Shown here: piece after piece, positions 1 to 39,688 of the stretch
Layout: each line of letters opens with the position of its first letter
Position numbering within the stretch: position 1 is the first letter of the stretch
Source: a virus
Lineage: Duplodnaviria > Caudoviricetes
Virus record (IMG/VR): IMGVR_UViG_3300044825_002268
Coordinates: 1 to 55,765 of that record
Direction: 5' to 3' (one strand)
DNA length: 55,765 nt
Notes under the pieces: generated by a model
Told to the model about the DNA's origin: nothing
Seen by the model: only the letters and a program-made list of their open reading frames with translations
Database searches by the model: none
Program-made: the position numbers and the translations under genes

Positions 1-170
1 ATCCAAGCGCCCGCCGCCATGCGGTGGTGCTGTTTTACGGCTTTTTGTTGCTCGTCTTTCTCAGTGGTTGCCATGGTTAACCTCCTAGTTGGCGTTGAAC
101 TTCGTTATTAAGTCTTACTGCGGTCTCGACCTGCTCTTTTCGGAGCTTCTGCTCGTCCAAAACCAGCTCT
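1..170. repeat. Terminal overlap, left copy (circular assembly overlap)
   Basis: 1-170 is identical to 55596-55765 except T44 vs C55639. Confidence 0.97.
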
Positions 171-2611
171 GCACTGCGTATACGCTCCTCAGTCAGGTTG
201 TTCTCGGCGTTCATGGCAATGTCTGCCTGAAGCCTTGCGGCCGCCTCTGCGGCCTTCTGCTGGTCTTTGCGCATACTGTCTTGCAGGTCAGCCTGTAGCT
301 TCTGGGTCTTGAACTGTAGGTCTGCCTGATCTGCCGCGGCCCGGCGCTGGGTTTCAGCCAAGGAAGCCTGCAATACCGCCTGAGCCTCAGCGTCAGGAGG
401 TGCCTGCATAGCCTGCTGGGCAAACTGCTGATTCATCTGGATGAGCTGCTGGAGCATAGGCATCAGAGAACCAAAGATCTGCTGGCTTTCGGCCTTTACG
501 TTGTCTGCGGCCATGGCGATCTGGTGATCCACCCCCATGACCTCGGGCATATCCTCGTACTTGGCCTGATCCATTGGCACATAGCCATTCATCCGGTTGG
601 TGTACCAAAGGACCATATGTTGCTTAACGTGCTCCAAGACCTGAGGAATCAACTGCTTGGCCATAATCGGGTTAGATCCTAAGGCTGGATCAAGGGCAAA
701 GCTCAGGTGGGTATGGATATGGGCGATCTGATCCTGCCGCGGGTAGGCGTAGGCGGTCTTACCCAAAGCCATAGCGGCATTTTCCTCGGCGGCCGATATC
801 TCATCGGTCGTTGGTGCCGTTGGCATGAGCTCGTTGACGTTGGGAACCTTTAACTGTTTGAGCATCCGAGACACCACCACCCGCTGATCAAAGAGTTGCG
901 GGTAGGCAGAGGCCATCTGCAGGACTGCCTGCATCTGGGATATCCGCTGGGTCTCGGAGAAGATGTGCGGATCAGAGACCGGCACTACGTCGCTATTGCG
1001 TTTAAAGTCCTCCCGCTGAACCGGAAGCTCGGCAACGATATCGCCCCTGCGCTGATCATCCAGATACCACCGGTTGATGCGGCCAAGCACCATTAGGAGC
1101 CGGCGCTGACTGTCATGCAGTCGGGCATGGATGGCAGAAAAGACTGCCGCACCCTGTTCGATTAGGGCTTGAGTCGTGCCTACCGGGGTGTTTTGCCCGA
1201 TGTCTGAAATCTTCTCTTCTGCGGTCGTTACAACCCCTTTGGCGGCGCTCGTAAGCCAACCCAAGAGCTGATACAGAACCGGGGAGGGTGGGTTAAAGGG
1301 CATCGGCATAGCGATCTTGCGGATATCGTCCACCCCCGGCGCACCCTCAATCTCAGTTACTTGGGTGACATCGACCTGCTGGGACTGCCCAGAGATCTTG
1401 GCTCCTTTAATCTTGAGCATGGTCGCTGAGTTATTGATATGCGCCGTGTCCAGCAAAGCCCGTAGAGCGCCTGTCAGAGCGGCCGACAAGCCCCCGATAA
1501 GGTGGGGAAGACCGATTGCATAGGCTCCACGCCAAGGGATGAACTTGAACTCAATGAGCCAGTCCAGCTTGGTCATGGTCTCATCGCCTTCCTCCCAGTT
1601 CCGATATAGACCAATGACCTCATGCTCAAGATCGTCGATCATCAGAATGTAAGGGGCGTTTTGGCCGTCGCTATAAGGATCGTCATCCAGCGTCAGGTAG
1701 GTATAGATATGAAATACTCGCCGTAGACCGTCCTCGTTATCCTCAAACTTCTTACCCTCAATCTTGTTGTTGGCCTTCTCGGCTGCGGTCTCATCCGGCT
1801 CCATGGTGGCCCGGATAAAGTCAATGTCTCGGTAAAGGCCGCGATCAATCCGGCGCTTGAACTCCCACTCCGTGATGTCGTGGATTTCTGACACCCGCTG
1901 GGCGGTATAGAAGTTAGCTGCGGCAAAAGGAATTAGAATGTTGTCTATGGGCACGAACTCTGCGCAGGGGCGCTTTTTTTCCTCGTCGTACCAGAGCTTC
2001 ATGTATTGAGAGCCGCCAAGGGGCAGCTGAGTCAGTAACTGCTCCTGCTCATCCCTAAATTCCTCGATCTGCTCAGTCAACTGCCAATTGATGTAATCCC
2101 GCTTACGCTCGGCAATCTCAGTCTTGGTCTCATCGACCTCACCCAAGATCTTGGTTCGGGCAGGGCCGTCGGGCGGGAATAGCTCTTTGATCGCCCGGGC
2201 AGCAAAGTCCACACAGGCTTCAGCCATCACGGGGTGAACCACCCGGGAAGCGCCCATGAACTGCGCTCCACCCGGGGCGTCATCACCTAAACCTGTCCGG
2301 CGGATGCCCTCTTCGTACTGCTTATCCCGCTTCTCCCTTGCCTCTTTATCCTTCTTCAGAAGGTCAAGGTAACGCATAGCGATAGCGTTCAGATCGGACA
2401 AATCATAAGAGTCGGCCAAGTTCTCATAGAAGTCTTTAGACTCCATCGGGCCGGTAAACTGATCGCTTAGGTTCACCACAGCCGATCCGTCAGGCATTTC
2501 CTCAACCTGAGTGATTTCCTCTGTCAGCTCAACGACCGCACCGCCATCCGGCGTAGTCTTTAAGCCTTGAATAAAGCGCCCGAACTCCGGGTCAATTGGC
2601 ATTTCAGGCAT
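77..2611 (-). CDS. Portal protein
   Basis: 844 aa, downstream of TerL and upstream of the head genes. 'VVHPVMAEACVDFAARA', acidic core and Q/A-rich coiled-coil C-terminus are typical of P22-like portals. Confidence 0.85.
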   Translation of the reverse strand: MPEMPIDPEFGRFIQGLKTTPDGGAVVELTEEITQVEEMPDGSAVVNLSDQFTGPMESKDFYENLADSYDLSDLNAIAMRYLDLLKKDKEAREKRDKQYEEGIRRTGLGDDAPGGAQFMGASRVVHPVMAEACVDFAARAIKELFPPDGPARTKILGEVDETKTEIAERKRDYINWQLTEQIEEFRDEQEQLLTQLPLGGSQYMKLWYDEEKKRPCAEFVPIDNILIPFAAANFYTAQRVSEIHDITEWEFKRRIDRGLYRDIDFIRATMEPDETAAEKANNKIEGKKFEDNEDGLRRVFHIYTYLTLDDDPYSDGQNAPYILMIDDLEHEVIGLYRNWEEGDETMTKLDWLIEFKFIPWRGAYAIGLPHLIGGLSAALTGALRALLDTAHINNSATMLKIKGAKISGQSQQVDVTQVTEIEGAPGVDDIRKIAMPMPFNPPSPVLYQLLGWLTSAAKGVVTTAEEKISDIGQNTPVGTTQALIEQGAAVFSAIHARLHDSQRRLLMVLGRINRWYLDDQRRGDIVAELPVQREDFKRNSDVVPVSDPHIFSETQRISQMQAVLQMASAYPQLFDQRVVVSRMLKQLKVPNVNELMPTAPTTDEISAAEENAAMALGKTAYAYPRQDQIAHIHTHLSFALDPALGSNPIMAKQLIPQVLEHVKQHMVLWYTNRMNGYVPMDQAKYEDMPEVMGVDHQIAMAADNVKAESQQIFGSLMPMLQQLIQMNQQFAQQAMQAPPDAEAQAVLQASLAETQRRAAADQADLQFKTQKLQADLQDSMRKDQQKAAEAAARLQADIAMNAENNLTEERIRSAELVLDEQKLRKEQVETAVRLNNEVQRQLGG

Positions 2612-5600
2612 AGCGTTTTAGCTCCTGTTGGAGGGAAAAGTTAATTAAATTTCCCGCATCTGTTACGTCTGGAACGGTATTAAACGGGGCAATGATTGGG
2701 CCGCCGCGTTGCATCTTGACTGCGCCGCCCTTTTTGTAGGGCTGGCCTTTCAGCGCAGATTTCTTCAACTCCGGGGTAAATTCAATCATATAGACCGGCT
2801 CAGTCAGGTCTGCGTAACCGCCCTCCTCGGTCACACCTCTACCTACTTTGGTTTTGGTCTCATAAAACCGACCACCCATCTGCTTGGCATAGTCTTGTAA
2901 GGCTTTCTTCAGTTTATTGTCATAAAACGCCAGCATCCCTTCTTCCCGTGGGGCGCTGACGCCGGTATCAAACTTTTGCATCCGATCCCATGTCTTTTTC
3001 GTTATCCGATCAATTTGATTTTCGGACAGCCGGCGACCAATGGACTCGACTAACTCTCGTAATTCCGCTTGCGTCTTAATTGGGACGCTTTTGCGTTCTT
3101 TTAAAATTCCCCTAGCCCGAGCCTCGGCTTCTAGGTTCATACGGCCTGCAAGACCGCCTTTTTGTTCTGTGGCCGATACATTCCACCCGTCTTCGGTCTT
3201 TTCCCAAGCAATCTCTTGTGTTCCCCAGCGCTTAATCTGAGGGCTGGCGGCTGAAAATCCTACGCGGTCGTAACCGTTTCGGGCTGCGTAGTTGAGCGCT
3301 CGTTTTAGACCCAGTTTGTGCCATGTTTCTTTTAACGGCGCGTTTGGCAGAAGTTCATTTAATTTTTCGTATGGTTTTTTTGCTTCATCATATTCTTTGA
3401 GTGCTTGGTCAGCAATTTGTCGCAACTTTTGGAATTCTGGATCTTGTCCAATTTGTCCTACTATATCTCCACTTAAATATCTTTTTCCAAGTTTTTGTAA
3501 AAATTCAATTTCTTTTTGATTTTTATATTGATTTACGTTGCCCTGCGCTTCCCTTGCTAGACTTTGTTTTTCCAGATAATTTGATCTAATCTCATCAGCG
3601 TTGGCCATATTCTCTGGCGTCCGATAACCACGGTCTGCGCCCTGCTGATGCCAGTCGGACTGCAGCTCGTCCACATAAAGCATAGGCTTGCCATCGGTAG
3701 TGATTCGGTCTTGTAGTCGCAGGTGGGCTATAACATCCGGCTCCTCGATGTGCGGGTTGTCGTTATATTCATCCCGCTCGTTGGCCAACTTCGCCTTTGT
3801 CTTTAGACGATTAAAATTGACTGTGTCTTCAGGCGTCATGACCGGTCTATCTTTGTCAGGGCCAATAGATTTTCTGAACTTCTCATACAGCCCTTCGAGC
3901 TGCGCCTGCTCCCGCTTCGTAAGAGCCGGGTTTGGCTGCGGTTGATACTGAATCCAAATCTCTCGGTAGTTCTCGCCCAAAGGTAATTGATAGTCGTGAT
4001 ACAACGTCTGTCCTTCAGAGACTAGCCCCATGTCGATAGCGTGAGTGTTGGCTGCGCCTTCTGCCTCTTCCTGAGTTCGGAAGTAATCTCCGACCGGACG
4101 ACCTCTGGCATCACGAACCGTAAAACCAACATCATCGTTACCTAAAATTTCGTAACCAAGGTCGTTTTCATATCGATAGTAAGGACTTTCCCAATATTGA
4201 CTATAGGCAATGTCGTAGGCTTCTTGACGGATGTTGTCATCAATCTTCGAGTCTATGTCTGCCTTTATCGCAGGGTTAGCCAACTCTTCCGGGGTGTATT
4301 CATCATAAATACGTTGAGCTATTTCATCCCTACGACCGGGATTGTAGTTATCAAAATCATTAAAAATGTCATCAGCGTTGCTGCTTATGTAATCCGGATC
4401 ATCGATAGAATCACCCCGAAACTTCATTTCAGCCTGATCGCCTTTAGCGGCTTCGTACTGGATTTCTGAAAACTTGTATTTATTGGCCTCTGTGAACTCT
4501 TGGATATCTTCCTTAGTGACTTTCGCTTGACCCGACAGGAAGGACTGCAAGCCAGAAAACTCCAGCTCTTCGTTTGATACGCCGCCGCGTTTGAGGTCAT
4601 TCAAAAAGGCATCGCCCGTTCCCTGCTTGCGCTGAAGGTTCAATGCGGCCTTCTCTGCTTGCGAAAAAAGTCCCAGCTCGTTTGCCGGCGCCTTAATCTC
4701 TGCTGGCTTTCCGGTCTTGACTTCAGTCTTTAATACCTCAGTTATGGGCTTACCTACCGGCTCAATCGATAGGCCAACCGGTAGCGGCGGGACTTCAGAT
4801 ACCGCCTCTTTTACAGCCGTGCCTGCTTTGCCAGCTATCGATCTGAGCTGCGGTGCCATCCCGGTCAGCGAACCCGTCACCGGCCCAAACACCTCCGGCA
4901 TTAGCGGGGGCAGCTTGTACTTAGTCTCAAGCTCCTCCATGAACTTACCGAACTGTCCGACCTTCTCAGCCGCTGCGGGGGAAAGATCTCCGCTCGGAAG
5001 CATGAACTCTTCCATAGCCTTTTCCCCGGCCTTGATACCTTCTTGGGTTCCAAACTTCCCTGAGGTAATGGTTTTGTAAGCCCCGACAAACGGGGAGACC
5101 AAAGCCTTGGGGATTTGGGAGGCGATGAACTTCGTAGCCTCAAAGGTCGGGCTGCCAGAAGACTCTTGGTTCGGATCTAAGGCGGGCAACATTCCGCTGA
5201 TCTCATCCGTAATCGGTGTGCCGCCGGCCTGCATATGGACAGGTCCACCAGCCTTGTAAGCCCTAAATTGCTCTTCAAAGTTTACTGGGCCACCAGACTT
5301 TTTCTTGTATTTATTTATGCCGCCAAAAAGATCGGCCAGCCGGTTAAATTCATCTTTTGATATGACCGGCTCTCCGTTGAACTCAGCAATAATATTGACA
5401 TCAATGCCACGATCTTGGGCATTTTTAAGAATATTTGGTCTAAGCCACACCAAGTCTGCATTAGAAAGATCGCCAATGTGCGACCATTGTTGAGACTTGA
5501 TAAAGTCTTGCACGAAAGGAATGAATTCATCGTCCGGGCGCTGATTTTTCGGACCTTTAATCTGGCTAATCAACGGTGGGCGGGGCGGAACCCCAGCTTC

Positions 5601-8600
5601 TGCCAAAGCCATAGCGGTATGCTCATCTGTCAGTTCTTCCACATCCGGATGCCGCTGGCGCCACTGACGAACATATTCGCGGTACTGCGCCTTGGTCTCC
5701 CCATCGAGCTTGGCAAAATCTTCGCCGCTTACAGGATACGGTTGCGGATTGGGCGTGACTTCTATTGTGACCGCCGGTTTGCCGGCCTTATCCCGTAGAC
5801 TGAAGATCCGAGACTGGCCGCTCACGACATCCGGGCAGTAGCCCCCAACGCAGTGCTGCATTACGTCGCCTTCGTAGCGCAAGGCTTCTTCTAATGCTTT
5901 GCGCGGATTACCGGGGGTGTCTGGATAATGCTTGTAAATTCCTTCAATTACATCCTTGAGATCAGTTCCGGTGATAAGTGCGCCTCGGCCGTCATCCCCA
6001 ATTTTTCTGACCGACATAGCCCTTGGCGCCTGATTGACCACCTCAAAACCTTCTGGGAGTTTTTCAGGATACGGCAACATCTTCATCTCAACCCAGCGCA
6101 AGCCCTTCTCTGTTTCGGGATACTCTTTAACAACCTCAACAGACTTCTGGGCAGACAAGGCATTGGCTTCAGCCTTCTGCACCGAGCGGTAGGCGTTGAT
6201 TCTGTCTACAAGGTCAGCCGCCTGCTGGACGGTCATCTTCTCTAAATCTTTTGGTTTGATCAGAAGATTCTCAGGCAGGCCAGAGTTTGGATTCAGAGCG
6301 TTTTTTAGCTCGTCAACCATGTGCTGAAAGCCGGTGGTGTACTCATCCATACCGGTATTGACCATGTTGACCCGAGTCTCAGGTGGCACCTTAAACAACC
6401 ATGGATTCTCAGAGTAGACACGCTTTGCGTCGCCTTCTCTCAAATAGTAGTTTGGCTGAATGATCTCGCCGGCTTTTGAACCATATCCGACATATTTGTC
6501 AGCCGTGTCCTCCCATAACCGACCAATTTCAGAAGACGCGGTAGCTTTTTTTGGAAATCCTGCGGCGATACGTCTTTGCTCTAATGCACTCATCAATTGA
6601 GTTTCTTGGGGAGAAAAGTGCAACCCGGTACGATTAGCAATGAAGTCACGTTCCTTTTGGAGCTTTAGTAGATCCTGCCGGGACTGGGTCAGCATCTCCG
6701 GGGTAACCCCGCGCTGCCTTGCCACCTCTTCCATCTTGTCCGTAGCTCTCTGAATCTCAGCGTCTTTGTCGGCCAACAACTTTTGCTGCTTTTGCGCCCA
6801 GTCGTCAGCCCCTAAACGAAGCGGATCTTCCGGAGTGCCCATCTCGTTTTTGATATACCGATTTAACTTTTGGTCGATCCACTTATTGATCGCCACCATT
6901 GGCTTTAAATTTTCAGTCGAAACCTCAAACTGCGTTCTAATGTCTCCCGACAACTCTGGCCTTGCCAATGCCTTTTCCATTTCTACCAACGCTGCAGCAG
7001 GGTCAGTTCCACCTGCCAATTTTTCCCTGATCGGCTCAGTCTTCTTTTCGACCTGACCGGCTAACCAGTTCCCACCTTTTGGCTTAACGATTGCAGGCGC
7101 TCCCAGCTTAGTGATGGCCTCGGTGTCACCCATCGCCTTATAGATCTGCTCTGCGGTCAGATCCGGCTTACCGGTGATTGCTCTTGTTGCCGCGGTTCCT
7201 ACGCTCTCCGCCCCTCTTGCAGCTCCTCGGGCAACCGGCGGGGCAAACGGAACCATCGACAGGGTTTCGGCCACATACGGCTTATCGGTCGTAATCGGGA
7301 TATTGCTTTGCTGGGGCATCCGGAAAAGCGGGTCACCGTAGCTTAACTTCTCAACCGTTTCTGATGTCGGCAGGATTAGGTCAAGCAACGTCCCTGTCGG
7401 GGAGTTCAGCCCCTTCTGAGCTTCTTCCCTAAACTTCAGGGCTTTGGCCAAAGCGCCTAACAGGGCGTTCTGCGGCGTAGCGCTGATCGATCCGGGGTTA
7501 CCACCGTCTTGCATATGAACAGGCCCACCAGCCTTATATGCCTGATACTGCGCCTCCAAATCTGACACCACCGGTGGAATGCCTTCTGGGCTAGCAAGAC
7601 CGCCCTCGGCCATGCCCTGCTTTTGCAGGTAGGTGAGGTATTCCTCGTTGATGTCCTGAGTCGGCAGGCCCTTGCCCTTTTCACCTAAGGTCCACTCGTA
7701 GTAACCGATCCTTGCCTTGCCTTGATCTTTCAGCCTTTGCGCATAGTCCCGCATGATCTTCTCGGCCTCACCGGGCTTAAACACCATGCCGGTATCCTCA
7801 CCGGTCAGAAGATAAGGAAAGCCCGGGTGCAGGTCTGGACGGTAGACGACATTTCCCTCAAGGTTAAATAGCCGCGGTCCGACCGCAAACGTCGGGACAT
7901 CTCCGCCGTGCTCTGGGTGCAGCAAAAGAGGTTCAGTCTCTTGTTTCAGAATATCGGTCGGGCGGAAGATCACGCCCTTGCCGCTCTTCTCACCGCCCAG
8001 TGCCACGCCGCCCTTAGACGGTGGGATGCCCTTACCCAACATGATGTCTGCAAGAGCCGCCCGTTTCTCAAAGGTGTCGGCCTTCTGCCAAATCTTCGGG
8101 TCGCGGATCTCGGCACCCTCCCCGAAGGTCAGGGCCAGATTGTGATTGATCTTCTTCTCAAGCTCTTTAGTGAGCTTGCCCTCTTTCATGGCGTCAGTAA
8201 AACCTTTACGCAACTTGTTGAACACTAGCGGGTTTGACTTCAACTGGTCTTCGGCGCCAAGGATGGTTGACCAAAACGTGAAAGGATCGGACTGGCCAAT
8301 CATTTTGCTGGCTGTGCCCTTCTCACCCACGCCCCAGACCAATCCCTCATAAAAAGGGTCGACCTGCTGTAAGCCGGAGAACATGGCACCGCCGATATTC
8401 CCGCCGCCGACTCTAGTGCGGTCGGACTGGGTGACTTTTAATTTGCCCTTACCCTCGACGTTTAGGTTACCTAACGCCTCGGAGAGTTTCATCGGCTCCG
8501 TCGCCTTAGCTACATCTGCAGCCCGCCGTCCAGCCGCCGCCCGATCCGCCGCCTTAGCCGCCTCAACCAAAGCCTCTTGGTCAGTGGCCTTGGCTGCCTT

Positions 8601-8645
8601 GCCTGCGCCTTTAGCTCCAATCGTTAGGGCTGCTTTAATTGGCAT
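2604..8645 (-). CDS. Large multi-domain (polyvalent-type) protein, probably virion-packaged; includes a PcfJ-like and a 'DELQSDWHQ' domain
   Basis: 2013 aa ORF. Contains 'EGDVMQHCVGGY...IFSLRD...VTIEV' (PcfJ-like) and 'LYVDELQSDWHQQG'. Modules are separated by clusters of xxGG motifs. Confidence 0.6.
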   Translation of the reverse strand: MPIKAALTIGAKGAGKAAKATDQEALVEAAKAADRAAAGRRAADVAKATEPMKLSEALGNLNVEGKGKLKVTQSDRTRVGGGNIGGAMFSGLQQVDPFYEGLVWGVGEKGTASKMIGQSDPFTFWSTILGAEDQLKSNPLVFNKLRKGFTDAMKEGKLTKELEKKINHNLALTFGEGAEIRDPKIWQKADTFEKRAALADIMLGKGIPPSKGGVALGGEKSGKGVIFRPTDILKQETEPLLLHPEHGGDVPTFAVGPRLFNLEGNVVYRPDLHPGFPYLLTGEDTGMVFKPGEAEKIMRDYAQRLKDQGKARIGYYEWTLGEKGKGLPTQDINEEYLTYLQKQGMAEGGLASPEGIPPVVSDLEAQYQAYKAGGPVHMQDGGNPGSISATPQNALLGALAKALKFREEAQKGLNSPTGTLLDLILPTSETVEKLSYGDPLFRMPQQSNIPITTDKPYVAETLSMVPFAPPVARGAARGAESVGTAATRAITGKPDLTAEQIYKAMGDTEAITKLGAPAIVKPKGGNWLAGQVEKKTEPIREKLAGGTDPAAALVEMEKALARPELSGDIRTQFEVSTENLKPMVAINKWIDQKLNRYIKNEMGTPEDPLRLGADDWAQKQQKLLADKDAEIQRATDKMEEVARQRGVTPEMLTQSRQDLLKLQKERDFIANRTGLHFSPQETQLMSALEQRRIAAGFPKKATASSEIGRLWEDTADKYVGYGSKAGEIIQPNYYLREGDAKRVYSENPWLFKVPPETRVNMVNTGMDEYTTGFQHMVDELKNALNPNSGLPENLLIKPKDLEKMTVQQAADLVDRINAYRSVQKAEANALSAQKSVEVVKEYPETEKGLRWVEMKMLPYPEKLPEGFEVVNQAPRAMSVRKIGDDGRGALITGTDLKDVIEGIYKHYPDTPGNPRKALEEALRYEGDVMQHCVGGYCPDVVSGQSRIFSLRDKAGKPAVTIEVTPNPQPYPVSGEDFAKLDGETKAQYREYVRQWRQRHPDVEELTDEHTAMALAEAGVPPRPPLISQIKGPKNQRPDDEFIPFVQDFIKSQQWSHIGDLSNADLVWLRPNILKNAQDRGIDVNIIAEFNGEPVISKDEFNRLADLFGGINKYKKKSGGPVNFEEQFRAYKAGGPVHMQAGGTPITDEISGMLPALDPNQESSGSPTFEATKFIASQIPKALVSPFVGAYKTITSGKFGTQEGIKAGEKAMEEFMLPSGDLSPAAAEKVGQFGKFMEELETKYKLPPLMPEVFGPVTGSLTGMAPQLRSIAGKAGTAVKEAVSEVPPLPVGLSIEPVGKPITEVLKTEVKTGKPAEIKAPANELGLFSQAEKAALNLQRKQGTGDAFLNDLKRGGVSNEELEFSGLQSFLSGQAKVTKEDIQEFTEANKYKFSEIQYEAAKGDQAEMKFRGDSIDDPDYISSNADDIFNDFDNYNPGRRDEIAQRIYDEYTPEELANPAIKADIDSKIDDNIRQEAYDIAYSQYWESPYYRYENDLGYEILGNDDVGFTVRDARGRPVGDYFRTQEEAEGAANTHAIDMGLVSEGQTLYHDYQLPLGENYREIWIQYQPQPNPALTKREQAQLEGLYEKFRKSIGPDKDRPVMTPEDTVNFNRLKTKAKLANERDEYNDNPHIEEPDVIAHLRLQDRITTDGKPMLYVDELQSDWHQQGADRGYRTPENMANADEIRSNYLEKQSLAREAQGNVNQYKNQKEIEFLQKLGKRYLSGDIVGQIGQDPEFQKLRQIADQALKEYDEAKKPYEKLNELLPNAPLKETWHKLGLKRALNYAARNGYDRVGFSAASPQIKRWGTQEIAWEKTEDGWNVSATEQKGGLAGRMNLEAEARARGILKERKSVPIKTQAELRELVESIGRRLSENQIDRITKKTWDRMQKFDTGVSAPREEGMLAFYDNKLKKALQDYAKQMGGRFYETKTKVGRGVTEEGGYADLTEPVYMIEFTPELKKSALKGQPYKKGGAVKMQRGGPIIAPFNTVPDVTDAGNLINFSLQQELKRYA

Positions 8646-8833
8646 CAGGGCTCCCCGATCACATACTTAGACTTATTGCCGTTGCGGATTGCCAAGATGG
8701 TGTAGCCCTTTGCCCTAAGTCTATGGATTTGCGCCGGCAGACGACCGATCCCCTTCTTCTTTGCGTAGGCTTCATCGATCCAGCCGTTTGAGAGAAGTCG
8801 GTCAAGGGTTAGCATCAGTTGGCTACGCTGCAT
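8645..8833 (-). CDS. Small winged-HTH protein
   Basis: 62 aa. 'GIGRLPAQIHRLRAKGYTI' resembles phage HTH_39-type proteins. Fills the gap between TerL and the next gene with overlaps. Confidence 0.55.
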   Translation of the reverse strand: MQRSQLMLTLDRLLSNGWIDEAYAKKKGIGRLPAQIHRLRAKGYTILAIRNGNKSKYVIGEP

Positions 8834-10229
8834 AAGGGTTCACGCGCTTAGGTCTGAATTCGGCGTAATCATCATCGTCCCTTGCCGGTGGGTCTATGTC
8901 AAGGAACCCCGCATCTCTGAGGTATCTGAGCGCCTGAGTACAGGTATCGACAAAGTCGTCATGGGTGGATTCTGGGAATGAGCAAATCTGACTGACGAAC
9001 CCCTCAGCCCAGTCTCGGACGTATCCCTTCTTGACCATTGACTCGGGGATGTAGACCCGCTTATGGGCGATGATGTTGGCCACAATCGATAGCCTCTGGA
9101 TCTTATCCGCCCGGCCGGGGTTGTACGCCCTCACCGGCAGACGCGCCCGCTGCAGGTCTTGGATGAGACTTATGCCCGAGGCTTTGTCTTCAATGAGGAT
9201 TAGGTCAACCTTCTTGCCGTCTTTGCCCTCCCCGTAGGTCACCTTGTATTCCTCGATGACCTTCGGCCGCAGGTCGGGGTACTGGAGCCTATCCTGCCAT
9301 GCGTCTATCAGCATGACCGCGGTTGGGCCGTCCATGGGCTGGAAGATCCCCCAAGTCGTGCAGGCGGTGGGATCGTTGACGGTCTTCTCGGTATAGGCGC
9401 AGTCGTAGGACTGCAGGATGAAGTCGAACTTCGGAAACGGCTTCTCAGCCGGCCAGAGCTTGAACATTTCCCGCTTGACGATCCCCGACTCCTCGGGATC
9501 GATGATCTCAGCGTAGATCTCCTGCCGCCCCAGCTTGGTTCCCTCGTACTGAAGGATCTGCTTTTGGAAATTAGGGGACAGGTTGGCTAGGTTGTCATAG
9601 GTGGACGCAGTAGTAAGCGTTACATCGTCCCCATCCCGGCCGACCAGATCGATGATCAAGTCTTTAGGCCGCGGGGTAGTGGTGGCGATAATCCGGGTTC
9701 TGGAGCCAAGCCGGACCGAGAACATGATCTGATCCCACGCCTCATCGAGGTAGTCCCAAGCGGCCAGCTCGTCTAGCCATGCCCCGTGGAACTGCGGCCC
9801 CCGGAAGCGCTCTGGCTCCGAGGCTGGGATGCCTTTGATCAGGCTGCCATTAGTCAATTTAATCTCGTGGAAGGCGCGGTTGTAATCTGCCACAAGTGAA
9901 TCGGGTATAACTGATAGGAGCCCTGAATCTCCTTCAAAACAGGTCGCCCGAACATCGGAGCTGGTGGGCGCTCCAACCAGCCAGCGAGTGCCTGCTTCCT
10001 GCCATGCCCACCACCCCACTTGCTCCGCAGCCGTCCGGGTTTTGCCGGCACCGCGGCCGGCGAGCATAAGCCATATCGTCCACCAATCCCCAGCCGGCAC
10101 AATCTGGTGCTTATGGGCCTTAGTGAGCCAGTTAGCCCGCCAAGCCCATGCGGCCTGATCCTCGGCTGGCAAAATGGAGAACTTGGCCTGAATCTCTGGG
10201 TCGGCCAGCAACTCAGCAAGATCAGTCAT
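8823..10229 (-). CDS. terL: Terminase large subunit
   Basis: Walker A 'AGRGAGKT', Walker B 'AWLDELA', motif III 'TTTP', RNase H-like nuclease 'SYD...HDDFVD'. Confidence 0.96.
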   Translation of the reverse strand: MTDLAELLADPEIQAKFSILPAEDQAAWAWRANWLTKAHKHQIVPAGDWWTIWLMLAGRGAGKTRTAAEQVGWWAWQEAGTRWLVGAPTSSDVRATCFEGDSGLLSVIPDSLVADYNRAFHEIKLTNGSLIKGIPASEPERFRGPQFHGAWLDELAAWDYLDEAWDQIMFSVRLGSRTRIIATTTPRPKDLIIDLVGRDGDDVTLTTASTYDNLANLSPNFQKQILQYEGTKLGRQEIYAEIIDPEESGIVKREMFKLWPAEKPFPKFDFILQSYDCAYTEKTVNDPTACTTWGIFQPMDGPTAVMLIDAWQDRLQYPDLRPKVIEEYKVTYGEGKDGKKVDLILIEDKASGISLIQDLQRARLPVRAYNPGRADKIQRLSIVANIIAHKRVYIPESMVKKGYVRDWAEGFVSQICSFPESTHDDFVDTCTQALRYLRDAGFLDIDPPARDDDDYAEFRPKRVNPYAA

Positions 10230-19071: not shown

Positions 19072-19233
19072 ATGGAAGACGACAGAGCGATGTGGGAACA
19101 AGCGAATTTAGAGCTAATGCAAGAGACCGAGGATGCCCTGCATAGGGCAGAGGCAGGTCAGGCCAGTCAGGACGACTGGAAGCTGATTTGGGCCGCCTGC
19201 GGTCTTTCTAAACAAAAGGAAAGCGAAAAATGA
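19072..19233 (+). CDS. Hypothetical protein (53 aa)
   Basis: MEDDRAMWEQ...; the 18931 start in the ORF track overlaps the promoters and cro, so the start was shortened. Confidence 0.6.
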   Translation: MEDDRAMWEQANLELMQETEDALHRAEAGQASQDDWKLIWAACGLSKQKESEK

Positions 19234-19877
19234 GTCTAACAGTCAAAGCCGGTAATGAAAGCAGTTTCGCCCCCGTACCCCCGGGAATGCACTTGGCCCG
19301 TTGCTATCGAATTATCGATCTTGGAACTCAGAAGTCTGAGTACATGGGTCAAACCAGATACCTACCTAAGGTCATGATTCAGTTTGAGGTTCACGGTGAG
19401 GATGATCAAGGTAACCCCTTGGTGACCCCTAAGGGTGAGCCGATGGCGATCAGCAAGAACTACACGGCATCGCTATCTGAAAAAGCCACGCTTCGTGTGG
19501 ATCTTAAAAACTGGCGTGGCCGGGACTTTACTCCTGAGGAACTTAAGGGGTTTGAGCTTAAAAACATCCTTGATAAGTGGGCCATGATCACCGTGACCCG
19601 ATCACCCGGTAAAGATGGCAAGGAATACACCAACATCGGGGCGGTCATGCCGGTTCCGGCCAACATCAAAAAAGCTGGGCTACCGGCTGGATTCAACGAG
19701 CCTGTAATTTTTTCCATTGAAACCCCAGACATGGAGTTATTTCAGACTTTCAGTGACGGCATTAAAAACAAAATCATGGCCTCACCAGAGTGGCAAGAGC
19801 GTTCCGGTGGAGTTACAGAAGGCATTCCGTCAGCAATGAACAACATTGCAAAGCTCGATGACGACATTCCTTTTTGA
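19230..19877 (+). CDS. Putative single-stranded DNA-binding protein
   Basis: 'PVPPGMHLARCYRIIDLGTQ' family pattern; acidic SSB-type tail 'DDDIPF'. Confidence 0.75.
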   Translation: MSLTVKAGNESSFAPVPPGMHLARCYRIIDLGTQKSEYMGQTRYLPKVMIQFEVHGEDDQGNPLVTPKGEPMAISKNYTASLSEKATLRVDLKNWRGRDFTPEELKGFELKNILDKWAMITVTRSPGKDGKEYTNIGAVMPVPANIKKAGLPAGFNEPVIFSIETPDMELFQTFSDGIKNKIMASPEWQERSGGVTEGIPSAMNNIAKLDDDIPF

Positions 19878-20368
19878 TGGACATAAAGACTGAACGTGGG
19901 CAGCAAACCCTTCGGGATGAACAAGACGCTGCGCTTATTTGGGAAAGAAACTTCCCGGCGTATCAATATGTTCAAACCCCGAAGGACCAGCCCGCTTTGG
20001 TCGATGCCATGCTGGTCAAGGATAAGGTCATTATGTATTGCGTAGAAACTAAGTGTCGATACGACATGACCTTAAACGATCTGTTTACCCATCGAAACGG
20101 TGAATGGCTCGTGACCTACGAAAAGATTTTAAAGGCCAAACAGATTGCTTTAGGGCTTGGTGTTCCTCTGATTGGCTTTCTTTATTTGGTGTCAGATAAG
20201 ATTTTGCTGACCCAAAAACTTACCGACGCCTTAGGTAACTTTGTTTGCAAGATGCGCACCGAAGACACCGAAACTCAGAGAACGGTAAACGGCGGGGTAA
20301 TTACAAGAAAAAACGCTTTTATCGATATGGATGAGGCAAAAATTCTAATGAATAAGACGAAGGATTAA
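19874..20368 (+). CDS. PD-(D/E)xK nuclease-like protein
   Basis: 'VDAML...CVETKCR'. Confidence 0.6.
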   Translation: MMDIKTERGQQTLRDEQDAALIWERNFPAYQYVQTPKDQPALVDAMLVKDKVIMYCVETKCRYDMTLNDLFTHRNGEWLVTYEKILKAKQIALGLGVPLIGFLYLVSDKILLTQKLTDALGNFVCKMRTEDTETQRTVNGGVITRKNAFIDMDEAKILMNKTKD

Positions 20369-20372
20369 GCGC

Positions 20373-21014
20373 ATGACATTTGTTTGCCCTTTGCCACCAA
20401 TTAAGGTTTTGGTTCGCCCTGAGTATCTTTATGACTTTCAGTGTGAACCCGACGCTCCCTTAATCAAAGGCATCTGGGTCAGTGTTAAGGCTATTCGTGG
20501 CGAGGCGTTCAGGTTTGAGACTTACCTGCCAGAATACGGCGCTTTGTACGACAAGCTACCCATTCACGCCTTCAATCATCTTGACTTTAAAGAAGAGGGC
20601 GAAGACTTGCCGCTCGATGTTCTTCAGATTTGGGATGCTTTGAGTTATTACGTCACCGTGGTTGATAAGCCTTTCCTCAAGGGACTACGAGCTGAGTTTT
20701 TTGGCAAGGATCGCAAGACTCATAAGGGGGAATATATGTTCACCTTGGACACTTGTAACCCAGACCCACGGATTCCAGACTTCACCTTATCGGAAACCGC
20801 TGATGAGCATAAGAGCTACAACCTCTTGAAGCTCGACAATGGCCAGTTTGCTTTGCAGCCCAATAACCGCTGCCGCTTCTTTGAACCAGCTTTCAATCCG
20901 GAACAACTGAAGCATCCCGACTTCAAGGTGGCAACCAAAAAGTATCGGGTAGAGCAGGCTGCCAAGTGGCGACTGGGGGATACCACCACATTTACTTACG
21001 AGACAGGAGACTGA
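20373..21014 (+). CDS. Conserved phage protein of unknown function
   Basis: 213 aa; 'GALYDKLPIHAF', 'YMFTLD', 'EHKS...LDNGQFALQPNNR'. Confidence 0.75.
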   Translation: MTFVCPLPPIKVLVRPEYLYDFQCEPDAPLIKGIWVSVKAIRGEAFRFETYLPEYGALYDKLPIHAFNHLDFKEEGEDLPLDVLQIWDALSYYVTVVDKPFLKGLRAEFFGKDRKTHKGEYMFTLDTCNPDPRIPDFTLSETADEHKSYNLLKLDNGQFALQPNNRCRFFEPAFNPEQLKHPDFKVATKKYRVEQAAKWRLGDTTTFTYETGD

Positions 21015-21015
21015 A

Positions 21016-21795
21016 GTGGCGGAGCTTATTGTTTCATCATTTAAATCAGAGGCTGGGCACTGGTACACCCGGGACGGAGAGCCAGCTTACACAACGGTCG
21101 GCAGCAACAAAAAAGAGCGACCTACAACCCTGCGGGATGCTAGAAAACTAAGCCTTGTCCCATCGGTCACTACAATCCTAAATGTAATGGCCAAGCCGGG
21201 ACTTGAGAACTGGAAGCTCCAGCAAGTATTGCTTGCCGCCCTAACCCTTCCCCGCTGGGATCAAGAGGCCGAAGGTGCTTACATCGACCGGATCATTGCC
21301 GACTCAAAAGAGCAGGGCAAAGCCGCAGCCGAGGTTGGCACTGACATCCATGCAGCCATTCAAACGCATTACGAGGGTAAAACCCCAGCCGCTTACCAAA
21401 ACTATGTCGACGGATGTACTAAGGCTATATTGGCACACTTCAATGACTGGGAGTGGATTGCGGAGAGAGCCTTTGCCCATGAGCTGGGATTCGGCGGAAA
21501 GTGTGACCTCCATGTACCTGCGTCTGATAAACACGCCGGTTTGGTGGTGGACATTAAGACCAAAGAGTTTACTGACCCGGACAAAGTCGAAGGCTTTGAT
21601 GACCACCTTATGCAGTTGGCCGCCTACCGGGTGGGTCTTGGCTGTCCAACGGCTCGATGCGCTAACGTCTTCGTATCACGGAATGTTCCGGGTCTAACCA
21701 AGATCATTGAATGGTCAGAAGAGGATTTAGAGCGAGGCTGGAAGATGTTCATCCGCCTTTTAGAATTTTGGCAACTGAAGAATAACCACAAATGA
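21016..21795 (+). CDS. PD-(D/E)xK exonuclease (Cas4/RecB-like fold)
   Basis: 'PSVTTIL', 'GTDIH', 'E.......GFGGKCD', 'VVDIKT', 'QLAAY'. Confidence 0.85.
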   Translation: MAELIVSSFKSEAGHWYTRDGEPAYTTVGSNKKERPTTLRDARKLSLVPSVTTILNVMAKPGLENWKLQQVLLAALTLPRWDQEAEGAYIDRIIADSKEQGKAAAEVGTDIHAAIQTHYEGKTPAAYQNYVDGCTKAILAHFNDWEWIAERAFAHELGFGGKCDLHVPASDKHAGLVVDIKTKEFTDPDKVEGFDDHLMQLAAYRVGLGCPTARCANVFVSRNVPGLTKIIEWSEEDLERGWKMFIRLLEFWQLKNNHK

Positions 21796-22004
21796 AAACA
21801 ATAACCGCATTTCAAACGTCTGATGGCAAAGTATTTACATCTGATGTCGATGCCAAAAGACATGAGAAGTTTCTTGAGCATAGGGACGTTGTAGAAGAGT
21901 TTTTAAAAAGCGACCTAAACAAATATCAGTCCGCTGTTCAGAAAAACATTGCGAGAAACACTATTACCTATTGGGAAATATGGAAGACCCAAAATTCTAA
22001 ATAA
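21792..22004 (+). CDS. Hypothetical protein
   Basis: 'AFQTSDGKVF....A..HE'; ATGA overlap. Confidence 0.7.
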   Translation: MKTITAFQTSDGKVFTSDVDAKRHEKFLEHRDVVEEFLKSDLNKYQSAVQKNIARNTITYWEIWKTQNSK

Positions 22005-34970: not shown

Positions 34971-35249
34971 TTACTCCACAAGTTCAGCTTCTTTTGGTTG
35001 ATTCACTACTTTGACAACTTCAGCGCCAATGATTGCTGTTGAAGTTTTTCTGTCAATCGTCATATAACCTTTACAGCAAATGTTGTAATCAACGCCGTTT
35101 TCATCTTTTTCACTTTTAATGGAAACGCTGATGTCTAAGTTTTTAAACAAATATTCTTTACCGTTCTCAAAAACACGCCATACATGATCCATCGTGCCTC
35201 GACCGGGCTGGCCTCGTTGTTTATTAAAACGAATTGAGTATTTGTTCAT
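34971..35249 (-). CDS. Hypothetical protein
   Basis: 'YSIRFNK.RG......HVWRVFENGKEYL'; overlaps the oxygenase stop. Confidence 0.7.
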   Translation of the reverse strand: MNKYSIRFNKQRGQPGRGTMDHVWRVFENGKEYLFKNLDISVSIKSEKDENGVDYNICCKGYMTIDRKTSTAIIGAEVVKVVNQPKEAELVE

Positions 35250-35923
35250 ACAACCTCCGCAGGCTGTGCGGTGTTGATTATTGCCGGCATATAAGGACGC
35301 AAACCAAGATTAAAATGGATGAATTTCATTGGTTTGTCTGATTCATTTCGGCTAAAACTATGAGGAAGCCACGCGCTAGTAAACATTAGCATTCCCGGTT
35401 TAGCTTCAAAATTGATCATATTGCTAGCATAAGTTGCCTGCGAAACATCTTTTTCGGTCCAAGAGATCAAAGGCTTGCCAGCTCTAGGATCATGGAATAT
35501 CACACGGGAAGCGTTCTCAGGCACCTCAAGAAAATAAAATCCAACTATTTGAGACCCGGCCCCATGAACGTGTTGATCCATTCCAGAGTATTTGTAATGT
35601 TCTTGACACCACATTTCTGAAAAGTAAGTCTCAAAACCGTCGAGGTTATATCCTTGCTCAACCAAAATGTTGTAAGCCGTCTGACCGATGTAATACTGAA
35701 GCGGAATAATTTCTGGCTTATCAAACAAATTTCCAGTCATATTGACCGGATAAATATCGTTTGTTTGCCGTTCTTTACGCGCCTCTACAAGCGCCTCTTC
35801 CGATATCTTGTTTGCCGCTTCTAAAAACTCAGGTTTTTCAATGGTATAAATAATTGTCGGAAAATACATATTTGCGTTAAGCACATCTTGTTTTTGTTCT
35901 TCTTCTTTATTTGCGGCGCACAT
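35246..35923 (-). CDS. 2OG-Fe(II) oxygenase-like protein
   Basis: 'HVH...G.Y.L.VP...F.DPR...G....F.AWLPH' pattern of the phage TIGR02466/2OG-FeII_Oxy_5 type. Confidence 0.8.
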   Translation of the reverse strand: MCAANKEEEQKQDVLNANMYFPTIIYTIEKPEFLEAANKISEEALVEARKERQTNDIYPVNMTGNLFDKPEIIPLQYYIGQTAYNILVEQGYNLDGFETYFSEMWCQEHYKYSGMDQHVHGAGSQIVGFYFLEVPENASRVIFHDPRAGKPLISWTEKDVSQATYASNMINFEAKPGMLMFTSAWLPHSFSRNESDKPMKFIHFNLGLRPYMPAIINTAQPAEVV

Positions 35924-35933
35924 TTTTATCTCC

Positions 35934-36926
35934 CTACCACGAATAAACTATTACACGGCCACTTCCACCATTTCCACCAGCACCAGAATTTCCTGCTCCT
36001 CCACAAGGCTTCCTTCCTCCACCGCCTCCTCCTCCGGCTGGAGTTCCACCATTTCCACCTCTTCCCGGCGTTGGCCCTCCGCCGCCTCCTCCGCCGCCAG
36101 TACCGCTTCCATTAAAATTTGTAATTCCCGGCGTTCCGTTTGTACAAGCAGCGCCACCCGCTCCGCCGCCCCCGCTTGTATATCTATTTGATCCACCTGT
36201 ACCGCCCGAAGAACCAGTAGTAACACAAAAAGCGCTTCCACCACTCCCGCCTCCTGCGCCGCCATACATTGAACTACCGCCGTTTTGTCCTGCATATCCT
36301 GCCGAAGAAGAAGTAGACCCTCCACTGCCACCTCCCCATTCAGCGTTATTTCCTACTCCGGTGGTAAGTTTTCCTGCACCACCTAAACCTATATTGCAAA
36401 GCGGGGCTGAACTATTTCCAAAAAAAGTTCCTTGCGGAGATCCGCCAACTCTTGCCGATGTTGTGCCAGTAGTTCCCGCTCCCGCGGCGCCGCCACCAGA
36501 TCCACCAGAGGCGTTAGTAGATGTACTTGTTCCCCTGTATCCACCGCCGCCACCGAAAGCCTTTACATAACAACCAAATTGAGAAGTTCCACCAACTGAT
36601 CCATCGTTTCCCACACCGCTACAAGTTGATGCTCCTCCTGTACCTCCTGCCCCTACTGTTACAGTAACGCTTTGCGGAAGTTGGGTTGCAATAAATTGAT
36701 TGTAATTTCTAGCGCCACCACCACCGCCAGTTCCGCCTCGCTGTCCACAAGTACAACCTTTTGATCCAGAGCCACCACCACCGCCGCCACCCCAAACACA
36801 AACGCGGACAAAAGAAATGCAATTGGGTTTTAGCCAGACACCTGAACTGTTAAATATCTGAATATTTCCGCCACGATTATTGACTTGATAATTAAAAGCG
36901 GAAATGTTTTGGTTAGAACGCGGCAT
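35934..36926 (-). CDS. Glycine-rich adhesin-like fibre protein, paralogue 3
   Basis: 'IFNSSGVW.KP....VRVCVWGGGGGGG...A.GGGGG...GG.GGSGRVIVYSW'. Confidence 0.75.
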   Translation of the reverse strand: MPRSNQNISAFNYQVNNRGGNIQIFNSSGVWLKPNCISFVRVCVWGGGGGGGSGSKGCTCGQRGGTGGGGGARNYNQFIATQLPQSVTVTVGAGGTGGASTCSGVGNDGSVGGTSQFGCYVKAFGGGGGYRGTSTSTNASGGSGGGAAGAGTTGTTSARVGGSPQGTFFGNSSAPLCNIGLGGAGKLTTGVGNNAEWGGGSGGSTSSSAGYAGQNGGSSMYGGAGGGSGGSAFCVTTGSSGGTGGSNRYTSGGGGAGGAACTNGTPGITNFNGSGTGGGGGGGGPTPGRGGNGGTPAGGGGGGGRKPCGGAGNSGAGGNGGSGRVIVYSW

Positions 36927-36937
36927 AGTTACCTCGA

Positions 36938-37168
36938 TTACTGCTGAGTTGGCTCTTCAGGTGTTGGTTCTGGAGTTGGTTCTGGGATTGGCTCAGGTTC
37001 CGGGGGCGCAATAAAGTTTCCATTGTCATGTGTCCAACCGATGTCACACAAAATTTCTTCTGCTTTGACGGCAATATGACCCTCAGGAGGTCTCCATTGA
37101 GATGCCTCATCCCAAAGAACCACATTGACTACAATATTTTCAGAATTAACTACTGCGTAGCGTTTCAT
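36938..37168 (-). CDS. Small fibre-associated protein
   Basis: 'YAVV....VVNV..WD......IGW..D...F..P' followed by a Pro/Glu-rich tail. Confidence 0.7.
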   Translation of the reverse strand: MKRYAVVNSENIVVNVVLWDEASQWRPPEGHIAVKAEEILCDIGWTHDNGNFIAPPEPEPIPEPTPEPTPEEPTQQ

Positions 37169-37177
37169 TTTTTCTCC

Positions 37178-38185
37178 TTACCATGAATACACACGGACTA
37201 AGCCGCTGCCACCATCACCACCACTACCGCCAACTTGACACGCTCCGGTTGCTCTTCCACCGCCACCCCCACCACCTCCGTATCTACCCCCGTTTCCGCC
37301 TCTTTTTCCGGTTGTTAGACAGCCGGTTGCTCCGCCTCCACCACCTGTTCCACTGCAACAAGCAGCTGTTGTTCCTGCCGTTCCTGCTGCGCCGCAAACT
37401 CCAGCTGCGCCACCTCCTCCTGCGGAAAAACTACCTACACTTCCTCCGGCACTTGCTGCTCCCGATGTGCCACCACCACCACCGCCGCCACCAGCGCCAT
37501 GTATCGAACTACCACCAGCACCAGACTTAAACTGACATCCAGATAGCCTAAAAACGCCACCCCCGGCGCCGCCACCAAAAATAGAATTTCCACCATCTGC
37601 TGAAACAGAAGTTGAAAGAACCCCTCCACCACCGCCATAAAAATTATCTAATGTCGTGCGAGTATTACCGCCCCCCCAATAAGTGGTAACAGTTGGCAAT
37701 CCGCCTAAAGCACCTAATGTTCCGGCGGTTGCATTTGCGCCTAAACCACCGCTTCCTCCACCTCCACCACCAGCCGTTCCACTATTAGAACTTAATGACG
37801 ATCCGGCGGCTCCCCGTCCACCTCCATATGCTGTTACATAACAACCAAAAGATGAATTTCCACCAGCAGTTCCATTATTTCCGGTTGTAGCGCAAGACCC
37901 AGATCCTCCAGTTCCCCCGCTACCAGTTGTTACTGTTACTGTATTTGTTACACAATTTGCATTGAACAATGACCTAACTTTTGCACCGCCTCCACCACCG
38001 GTTGCGCCAGCCCAACACCCTCTTCCTGCTCCTCCACCACCGCCTCCTCCGCCCCAAAGGCAAACTTGGATCATGGTGACATTAGGAGGTTTTATCCAAA
38101 CACCGGATGAAGTAAATGTCTGAACATTGACATTTGGGGAGTCAACCGTGTAATTAAATGCAGATAATTGATTAGATGTCGGCAT
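37178..38185 (-). CDS. Glycine-rich adhesin-like fibre protein, paralogue 2
   Basis: Same N- and C-terminal motifs as 35934-36926. Confidence 0.75.
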   Translation of the reverse strand: MPTSNQLSAFNYTVDSPNVNVQTFTSSGVWIKPPNVTMIQVCLWGGGGGGGGAGRGCWAGATGGGGGAKVRSLFNANCVTNTVTVTTGSGGTGGSGSCATTGNNGTAGGNSSFGCYVTAYGGGRGAAGSSLSSNSGTAGGGGGGSGGLGANATAGTLGALGGLPTVTTYWGGGNTRTTLDNFYGGGGGVLSTSVSADGGNSIFGGGAGGGVFRLSGCQFKSGAGGSSIHGAGGGGGGGGTSGAASAGGSVGSFSAGGGGAAGVCGAAGTAGTTAACCSGTGGGGGATGCLTTGKRGGNGGRYGGGGGGGGRATGACQVGGSGGDGGSGLVRVYSW

Positions 38186-38191
38186 AACTTT

Positions 38192-39202: not shown

Positions 39203-39203
39203 C

Positions 39204-39686
39204 TTAGTAGTTTCCTCCGAAAGCCGACATAGCAATTGCAATGTTAGTGCCGCCGGCAGCTACAGTTAGTCCACCATAAATACGATAACTAGCCGGAATA
39301 TTCAGACCACCTGTTGGAAGTATTAGGGGATATGTTGTCAGGGCTGAAGTTGCTAACGCCGTGACCGCTGTTGCAGGAATTGCTACTTCGCCTAAGAAAA
39401 TGTTATTTCCTGCGGTTGTGTTTGCCGATCCATTGTTAATCCAAAAACGAACCACAGTTGCCGATGATGTTCCTGATGCAGTTGCGCCATTAGTTGACGA
39501 TAAACGACAAATAACTTGATCAATACGAGCGCCATCAGCACCAGCTGTAAAAACTAAAGCTAACGCTGTACCGGCGGTTTCTGTACCATCAAACGCTTTA
39601 GTATTAGTCATTGCTGTACTAACAATTGCGTTTAACGCACCGACATTAGGCGTTTGGGTAAAAATTGGGGTTGCTGTTACTGCCAT
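39204..39686 (-). CDS. Putative fibre/adaptor structural protein
   Basis: 160 aa, beta-rich, ends 'FGGNY'. Confidence 0.6.
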   Translation of the reverse strand: MAVTATPIFTQTPNVGALNAIVSTAMTNTKAFDGTETAGTALALVFTAGADGARIDQVICRLSSTNGATASGTSSATVVRFWINNGSANTTAGNNIFLGEVAIPATAVTALATSALTTYPLILPTGGLNIPASYRIYGGLTVAAGGTNIAIAMSAFGGNY

Positions 39687-39688
39687 GA

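Follow-up and report, generated by a model that had tools for sequence, protein, structure and literature searches.

The window analysed here, a 55,765-base stretch of DNA that makes up an entire virus record (IMG/VR IMGVR_UViG_3300044825_002268) and whose gene content looks podovirus-like, holds between its large-terminase gene (terL) and its portal gene one reading frame that stays open for 2013 codons. The product of this slot gene, P0001, is in all probability a modular protein of the polyvalent type. As we picture it, P0001 would be a member of a mosaic polyvalent family that fills the terL-portal slot of ~55-kb podovirus-like phages, and it would consist of three modules that circulate independently of one another, A, B (PcfJ-like) and C, each closed by a bipartite motif in which a hydrophobic residue, Lys or Ala, and any residue precede two glycines (hydrophobic-[K/A]-x-G-G), with Val or Ala at +2 and often a short, Met/Leu-rich amphipathic helix behind. 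Since the same motif also fills a second, disordered and basic protein of the window, P0007, it looks to us like a shared address or processing signal.

Modules and their breakpoints

The preliminary description of this DNA saw in P0001 three segments that each end in a cluster of one short Gly-Gly (GG) motif, and the clusters lie where it placed them (Table 1), far above shuffle expectation. P0001 has 8 copies of the pattern [MFYL][AKQ]xGG, whereas its 5000 shuffles average 0.64 and never exceed 6, and a 13-residue double motif is present in 3 copies while 0 of 5000 shuffles gave any. An internal comparison of P0001 revealed no long internal repeats and the segments act as separate modules in BLASTP, which bears out the further claim that the flanks of the linkers are mutually unrelated. 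Only in part could we follow the suggestion that the linker was duplicated at the DNA level: the YKAGG linkers 1 and 2 are recognisable as diverged copies (76% identity across 59 nucleotides; 34/41 nucleotides for 5221-5261 versus 7501-7541), but there is no exact repeat. Because the GG codons vary among the 21 listed motif copies of P0001 and P0007, conservation of the motif is at the protein level.

That the segments are modules in their own right, with a reusable motif at the joints, as had been proposed, is best seen in related phages. An IMG/VR portal search supplied 80 related loci whose portals are 64-98% identical, and in BLASTP against a set of 102 slot proteins P0001 resolves into A (residues 1-349), B (from ~437/515 to 1066/1140) and C (from ~1326/1547 to 1963), each of which matches many of these proteins in varying arrangement. 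Module A is N-terminal in some relatives and internal or C-terminal in L025, L039, L041, L069, L070, L073 and L079 (internal in L025 and L039, following B in L073), and module C forms its own open reading frame (ORF) just upstream of the portal gene in at least 17 loci. In 13 of the alignments listed, Gly349 is the precise point at which homology to module A stops. Each module also has homologues that stand alone or form separate ORFs ending just past the motif. The module A search gave 71 matches, and among the 8 fetched, chosen as those on the longest contigs, 4 are single-module proteins that end 11-60 residues past it; the module C search gave 177, and many podoviruses have module C as a protein by itself, 650-740 residues long and, in those of ~36 kb, encoded just upstream of terL-portal. 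Because stand-alone module C occurs in these other podoviruses, a strictly lineage-specific origin is disfavoured.

The closest relatives show the exchange at nucleotide resolution. The terL and portal proteins of L004 and L005 are 98-99% identical to those of the window, and their slot protein has only 1274 residues. L004, the closest of all, is without module B, in whose place lie ~130 residues with MAEGG at one edge and FAQGG at the other, and its module C is only 32% identical in the C-terminal half. Compared as DNA, window and L004 are 94% identical down to position 7600, 89% identical for 5262-4734 and 92% identical again from 2747, so that all three junctions (7600, 5262 and 2747) fall in linkers. 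The same holds more widely: 1190 of the 4592 ends of internal BLASTP alignments between slot proteins lie within 12 residues of a motif GG, against 356 +/- 39 (maximum 466) in 500 circular shifts, a comparison of ends that are not independent events, the sequences being related. C-terminal ends are more enriched (739/2276) than starts (451/2316).

Breakpoints of this kind might be taken to mean that the motif is nothing but a passive hinge and recombination joint, a Gly-Gly linker cassette that spread by duplication and offers microhomology for swaps, with no biochemical recognition. The similarity of the two YKAGG linkers, both of which hold the Chi-like octamer GCTGGTGG, the position of the mosaic breakpoints, and the low predicted local distance difference test score (pLDDT) of residues 346-349 in the module A model (below 50) are all in keeping with it. 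We nevertheless consider it distinctly unlikely: at orthologous sites GG and the residues at -3 and -2 are retained amid variable neighbours; the codons are not the same from copy to copy, and 13/13 copies in P0007 and 6/8 in P0001 lack the octamer; the motif is enriched in the unrelated P0007, which has no swappable modules; and single-module proteins also end in it. For the codon differences, and for the absence of GCTGGTGG from most copies, we also rejected a DNA-level repeat or a Chi site as the main cause of the motif. The octamer itself is over-represented in the window as a whole, with 18 copies against 1.9 expected (0/100 shuffles reach 18), for example at 5245-5252, 7525-7532 and within 37488-39754. 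Of these, 17/18 lie on the minus strand, the strand of most genes, and 10 lie in tail-fibre-assembly-like paralogues and an adjacent tail-fibre-like ORF (39689-40396); the excess may simply reflect Ala-Gly-Gly codons.

A motif conserved by position

Across the lineage the motif behaves as a short linear motif with position-specific conservation. A logo built from distinct GG contexts, 1000 of them from slot proteins and 506 from the P0007 family, shows Met, Tyr, Phe or Leu at -3, Lys or Ala at -2 and Val or Ala at +2, and the looser pattern [MFYLIVW]xxGG occurs 516 times in the 102 slot proteins against 244 expected. The G348/G349 pair that closes module A is at least 90% conserved when the mean column identity is 38% (22 sequences). 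The preliminary description had looked for its counter-evidence in homologues that align continuously across the linkers and lack the motif; what we find across linker 2 is the motif kept at the aligned place in 6/7 homologues (MKRGG, YAHGG..MADGG, YAQGG..KDGG and YADGG..MTDGG among its orthologous forms), the seventh alignment ending before it reaches the linker. Relatives also carry tandem arrays, with up to 6 consecutive copies at spacings of ~23 or ~13 residues. Both internally and at C-termini, a short helix rich in Met and Leu often comes after GG (..NPDTMMLEL, ..DDLILEE, ..SQDEMLA).

The motif also closes the products of split genes. At least two large slot ORFs are present in 22 loci, and in 21/22 of these the first stops within 20 residues past a motif (38 residues in the remaining one, L013), usually with the ending ..AxGG-(A/E)(I/V)xxDDLILEERPL and an ATGA overlap into the second. 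The last slot ORF usually closes with [K/R]xGG and a tail of 6-40 residues. In the wider portal-related group, some members of which are cultured pelagiphages, the motif of HTVC027P is a diluted form. We also looked at whether the portal itself is part of the system through a C-terminal GG and rejected this, as just 18/81 portals end in GG and the conserved part is ...NLG-x.

A companion basic protein

A scan of all ORFs of the window for the motif identified P0007, a 348-residue protein with an isoelectric point of 10.1 that consists of 16% Lys and 15% Gly and is predicted to be disordered (mean pLDDT of its Atlas model, 0.40). It has no family match, Pfam and NCBIfam included; an ESM Atlas search with it returned viral hypotheticals, and tblastn against phage records returned nothing, possibly through low-complexity filtering. 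The Pfam KGG stress repeat was considered as a lead and dropped, P0007 having no Pfam match. Motif-rich ORFs of 298-482 residues with 9-16 copies were detected downstream of the portal gene in 37/83 scanned loci. The 8 such proteins listed, that of the window included, have a conserved N-terminal segment in common, and 6/8, again including that of the window, end in GG plus 1-4 residues, the final one Cys.

Caulobacter phage RW, which is without a slot protein, is also without a motif-rich protein in its capsid-adaptor interval. In DSL-LC04 (L086) several small and strongly basic ORFs of 62-94 residues follow one another from the capsid-side genes to the adaptor (1315-2752); the GG motif is present in some, Cys or Cys-Lys closes two of them, and the series has the look of P0007 in split form. 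None of four complete 35-37 kb podoviruses with a stand-alone module C has a P0007 homologue (0/4; positive control 1/1), and in the three of the four that we fetched, no ORF is both basic and motif-rich in a comparable way.

The slot and the polyvalent class

A giant gene between terL and portal, which the preliminary description thought unusual in itself, turns out to be the norm of this lineage. Both genes are present in 70 loci, where the interval between them measures from 1.8 to 8 kb, and a slot ORF of at least 400 residues was found in 78/80 loci by an ORF filter and in 79/80 once L011, missed by the filter, is included; in the exception, L035, a contig end cuts the slot. L011 has the largest slot ORF seen (2263-10001), which runs for 2577 codons from stop to stop and fills a 7.7-kb interval. 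In named phages the slot contents are an 825-residue 'PcfJ-like protein' in DSL-LC04, an unrelated 890-residue protein in MW202545, gp41 and gp42 in HTVC027P, only a tRNA in Caulobacter phage RW, and terL directly adjoining portal in CRP-901.

ART-PolyVal (PF18760) was recognised in 4/6 large same-slot proteins of relatives, and GP88 in one; because of the former we assign the slot family to the polyvalent proteins. A GHEGRHR motif, which we take to be ParB-like, occurs in 15/102 slot proteins. P0001 itself combines at least two unrelated effector-type domains with a site among packaging genes and mosaicism between close relatives. Polyvalent proteins have been predicted to be packaged in the head and injected, some of them being proteolytically processed (PMC5512222), and in the podovirus phi24B one of 2811 residues, gp47, was detected in virions by proteomics (10.64898/2026.04.10.717836).

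What the modules themselves might be is only partly apparent. PcfJ (PF14284) is the sole Pfam family recognised in P0001 at E ≤ 0.01, through a partial match in module B (28.1 bits, cut-off 25) that covers positions 75-123 of the 147-position profile. The assignment agrees with the PcfJ-like annotation of the module B homologue in DSL-LC04 and with an ESM Atlas search that returned PcfJ-type clusters only, at 0.84. S949, L950, T960, Q1028 and K1030 are invariant in module B and D952 and E962 nearly so. Modules A and C were approached through structure models, which suggest that A is possibly a PUA-like nucleic-acid reader and C possibly GNAT-like. The module A model (pLDDT 78) finds PUA-like readers (YTH, ASCH, EVE, McrB-N) in at least 15 of the 50 VIA-align rows listed, a weak and consistent signal whose best match (Z 5.8, root-mean-square deviation (rmsd) 3.6, 132 residues aligned) lies under the tool's reliability level. 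For module C (644 residues modelled, pLDDT 69) the lead is also weak: five entries at Z 8.2-8.7 amid many helical-hairpin matches, namely 5l7j (Z 8.7, 101 aligned, rmsd 2.9), 6edw and 8g8k (both Z 8.3, 119 aligned), 6g96 (Z 8.2, 115 aligned) and 7ovu (Z 8.2, 126 aligned), all of which we take to be of GNAT fold. Foldseek against the PDB gave no match at E ≤ 0.001 for either model, a BFVD structure search returned uncharacterised phage proteins only, and a sequence search of solved structures found none for P0001 or a module A profile. Megablast of the slot gene against phage records gave no match, nor did NCBIfam for P0001, P0007, the scaffold-like protein P0008 or two neighbouring ORFs.

What the motif might do

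Our preferred reading, held tentatively, is that the motif may serve as a common tag by which head-internal proteins are docked or co-incorporated. It would dock the polyvalent and basic proteins to a common partner, to each other or to DNA during head assembly; the docked proteins would be packaged and later exit with the genome. Internal copies would then be the retained C-terminal tags of once-separate proteins, doubling as joints for module exchange. A recognition tag seems to us more likely than a passive hinge because the motif is fixed at the C-termini of both modules and polypeptides, because an amphipathic helix often follows it, and because a basic protein predicted to be disordered accompanies it.

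Virion packaging of P0001 and P0007, the docking function and its partner are all things that we infer, and several observations weigh against this picture. One copy suffices for a tag, and the tandem arrays and the 13 copies in P0007 fit avidity, condensation or repeated cleavage equally. Nor is the motif universal: 9/12 fetched stand-alone C proteins (of the 177) have no C-terminal GG, the remaining three (P0015, P0032 and P0120) having GG near the C-terminus, in two of them resembling the GG-L..R tail. The single motif copy in P0008 is not conserved, and conservation falls mostly on the N-terminal side of GG, as expected for a protease site. P0001 itself has no Pfam match to MuF, LPD or ART-PolyVal and shows none of ART-PolyVal, LPD, MuF, ArdC-N or MPTase at E ≤ 0.01, and a Phage_Mu_F domain had neither a Pfam nor a PHROG match. 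A complex prediction of the portal with P0001 residues 1955-2013 scored 0.00, was run without controls, and counts neither for nor against binding.

The bias toward the N-terminal side brings in the polyprotein explanation, according to which an unrecognised protease, or one that the host encodes or the protein itself contains, would cut after or within GG and free A, B and C, and the basic protein would be diced into short, DNA-neutralising peptides. Processing has been proposed for polyvalent proteins (PMC5512222), no module boundary is without the motif, which occurs in head-region proteins of three kinds (the slot protein, P0007 and, once, P0008), and the 6-40 residue tails past GG would make removable propeptides. 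Cleavage seems to us unlikely all the same, as scans of 34 ORFs of the window (with Pfam, PHROGs or NCBIfam) detected no protease family and Pro directly follows GG in 4/8 P0001 motifs. The hydrophobic residue would sit at P5, versus P4 in the adenain consensus, and P0007 homologues keep a Cys 1-4 residues past the last GG, which would be odd for a discarded peptide. Two embedded candidates found no support: a zincin peptidase, since HExxH is absent from P0001, and a Cys/His protease in the PcfJ-like core, since H931 and C932 (HCVGGY core) vary among homologues. The wider proposition that tailed phages of this lineage run a GG-directed maturation, in which an unrecognised protease cuts hydrophobic-[K/A]-x-G-G to free modules and yield DNA-condensing peptides in the head, is one to which we give little credence; maturation of such a kind is not known outside adenoviruses and viruses like African swine fever virus (ASFV).

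It is also conceivable, if very improbable, that K-x-G-G with its hydrophobics imitates the mobile loop of GroES and so recruits host GroEL to fold a large protein. A GroES-like gene lies by the portal gene and is annotated in the related phage records inspected (DSL-LC04, MW202545, Caulobacter phage RW and HTVC027P), and the mobile-loop region of the window's own GroES-like protein may loosely resemble the motif. Against this, the motif is without the loop's three consecutive hydrophobics, only +2 being weakly hydrophobic, and Caulobacter phage RW keeps the GroES-like gene and is without slot and motif-rich proteins.

Whether as docking tag or otherwise, the motif bears on questions of some general interest. 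Polyvalent proteins are thought to be an injected payload that blunts host defences, and one would like to understand how such huge mosaics get addressed to the capsid, are handled inside it and are rebuilt so fast. One short motif that stands at every module and split-gene end and fills a companion basic protein is a handle that can be mutated, on cargo entry into the head, on the cutting of cargo and on the sites at which modules recombine. Should the tag prove transferable, phage heads could be loaded with foreign proteins by means of it.

Genomic context

The features discussed are collected in Table 1. The stop of the slot gene overlaps the start of the portal gene by 8 nucleotides, and the 62-residue ORF between terL and the slot gene has a weak match to HTH_39, under the Pfam cut-off. 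Across the record ends, along with the GroES-like and HK97-type capsid genes, lie further genes for the scaffold-like P0008 (an acidic coiled-coil protein), an SU10-type adaptor, collagen-like tail fibres and ejection-like proteins.

Table 1. Features of the window and of P0001 (positions in nucleotides; residues of P0001 in the last column)
Feature	Position	Strand	Description
Slot gene, modular polyvalent-type protein P0001	2604..8645	(-)	2013 aa, open for 2013 codons
Module A	7599..8645	(-)	aa 1-349; conserved domain ending ...LQKxG-[YFLM]-[KA]-x-GG
Linker 1	7500-7613	(-)	aa 345-382; MAEGG, short helix, then YKAGGPVHMQDGG
Module B, PcfJ-like	5310..7337	(-)	aa ~437-1112; Pfam PF14284 match aa 920-966 (nt 5748-5888)
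Linker 2	5220-5303	(-)	aa 1115-1142; KKSGG, short helix, then YKAGGPVHMQAGG
Module C	2742..5210	(-)	aa 1146-1968; invariant EEIQSDW, PDAPFKxxW and GEGM motifs
Linker 3	2700-2738	(-)	aa 1970-1982; YKKGGAVKMQRGG
Linker 3 + C-terminal tail	2604..2738	(-)	aa 1970-2013; YKKGGAVKMQRGG then 31-aa tail
P0007	48840..49886	(-)	348 aa; 13 motif copies; between capsid and adaptor genes
Portal protein	77..2611	(-)	844 aa; phrog_1216; downstream edge of slot
62-aa ORF	8645..8833	(-)	between terL and slot gene; kept in L004
terL	8823..10229	(-)	Pfam Terminase_6N/6C; upstream edge of slot
terS, Sf6-type	within window		profile match
HK97-type capsid protein	51753-52667		family match
GroES-like co-chaperonin	54893-55321	(-)	Cpn10 match; just downstream of portal, across record ends

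Some other genes deserve mention in their own right. Three paralogous tail-fibre-assembly-like genes (phrog_863; 35934-39241, minus strand), with ends of the form V(Y)(S/T)W, neighbour genes for a 2-oxoglutarate-Fe(II) oxygenase (35246-35923), a family 2 glycosyltransferase (40849-41817) and a methyltransferase/glycosyltransferase fusion (41805-43253), and a collagen-like tail fibre (43253-45862) adjoins them; together these genes could serve to hydroxylate and glycosylate collagen-like repeats. A small plus-strand block (19230-22004) encodes a 215-residue protein of phrog_862 (function unknown; 19230-19877), whose end, ...DDDIPF, presumably resembles the acidic C-terminal tip of bacterial single-stranded DNA-binding protein, and a 213-residue protein that matches phrog_3704 ('ferredoxin', E 2e-83; 20373-21014). 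In Caulobacter phage RW (L003, 2445-5247) terL is annotated as two coding sequences (223 + 481 residues) with an S-adenosylmethionine-dependent methyltransferase gene between them, and a 501-residue ORF follows the capsid gene, its sequence suggesting a possible homing-endonuclease-type insertion.

Comparison with known systems

The systems that come to mind for a recurring Gly-Gly signal in virion proteins are those of adenovirus (adenain) and ASFV (pS273R), where core-protein and polyprotein precursors undergo GG-specific processing; the processing of the T4 prohead core is a comparable proteolytic maturation. They share with the present case a hydrophobic residue before Gly-Gly and its recurrence in basic core, scaffold-like and polyprotein components of the virion. 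They differ in that the hydrophobic residue here stands one position further from GG, away from P4, and in that neither a clan-CE nor any other protease was detected in the window; the viruses studied here are tailed phages and not eukaryotic viruses, and cleavage in them is hypothetical. Closer to a docking tag are the C-terminal cargo-loading peptides of encapsulins and the capsid-targeting sequences of T4 internal proteins, short terminal peptides that address cargo inside an HK97-fold shell, the latter being N-terminal and removed by a known protease. These too are short tags on unrelated cargo that can be transferred between cargos, whereas their sequences are different, the tag of the P0001 type is often internal and tandem, and its receptor is hypothetical.

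Among short-tailed phages, gp47 of phi24B is likewise a giant polyvalent protein proposed to be encapsidated and ejected (10.64898/2026.04.10.717836). It differs from P0001, to which we liken it by description only, in having LPD domains and a MuF-C metallopeptidase, and GG punctuation is not described for it in the consulted passages of that work. A further counterpart is the class of polyvalent proteins (PMC5512222), which P0001 resembles as a very large multi-domain protein encoded among the virion genes of a portal-terminase phage, in its extreme mosaicism between close relatives and through ART-PolyVal and the GHEGRHR motif in same-slot relatives, and from which it differs in having neither the named polyvalent-associated Pfam domains nor MuF or a zincin peptidase. 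Neither 'linker' nor 'glycine' occurs in the main text of that report, and in the literature that we consulted, where the motif is unsearchable as text, we could not find a description of the punctuation motif or of its sharing with a companion basic protein. P0001 appears to be a variant of the known polyvalent kind, set apart by modules that are punctuated with hydrophobic-[K/A]-x-GG and by having this punctuation in common with a basic, disordered protein.

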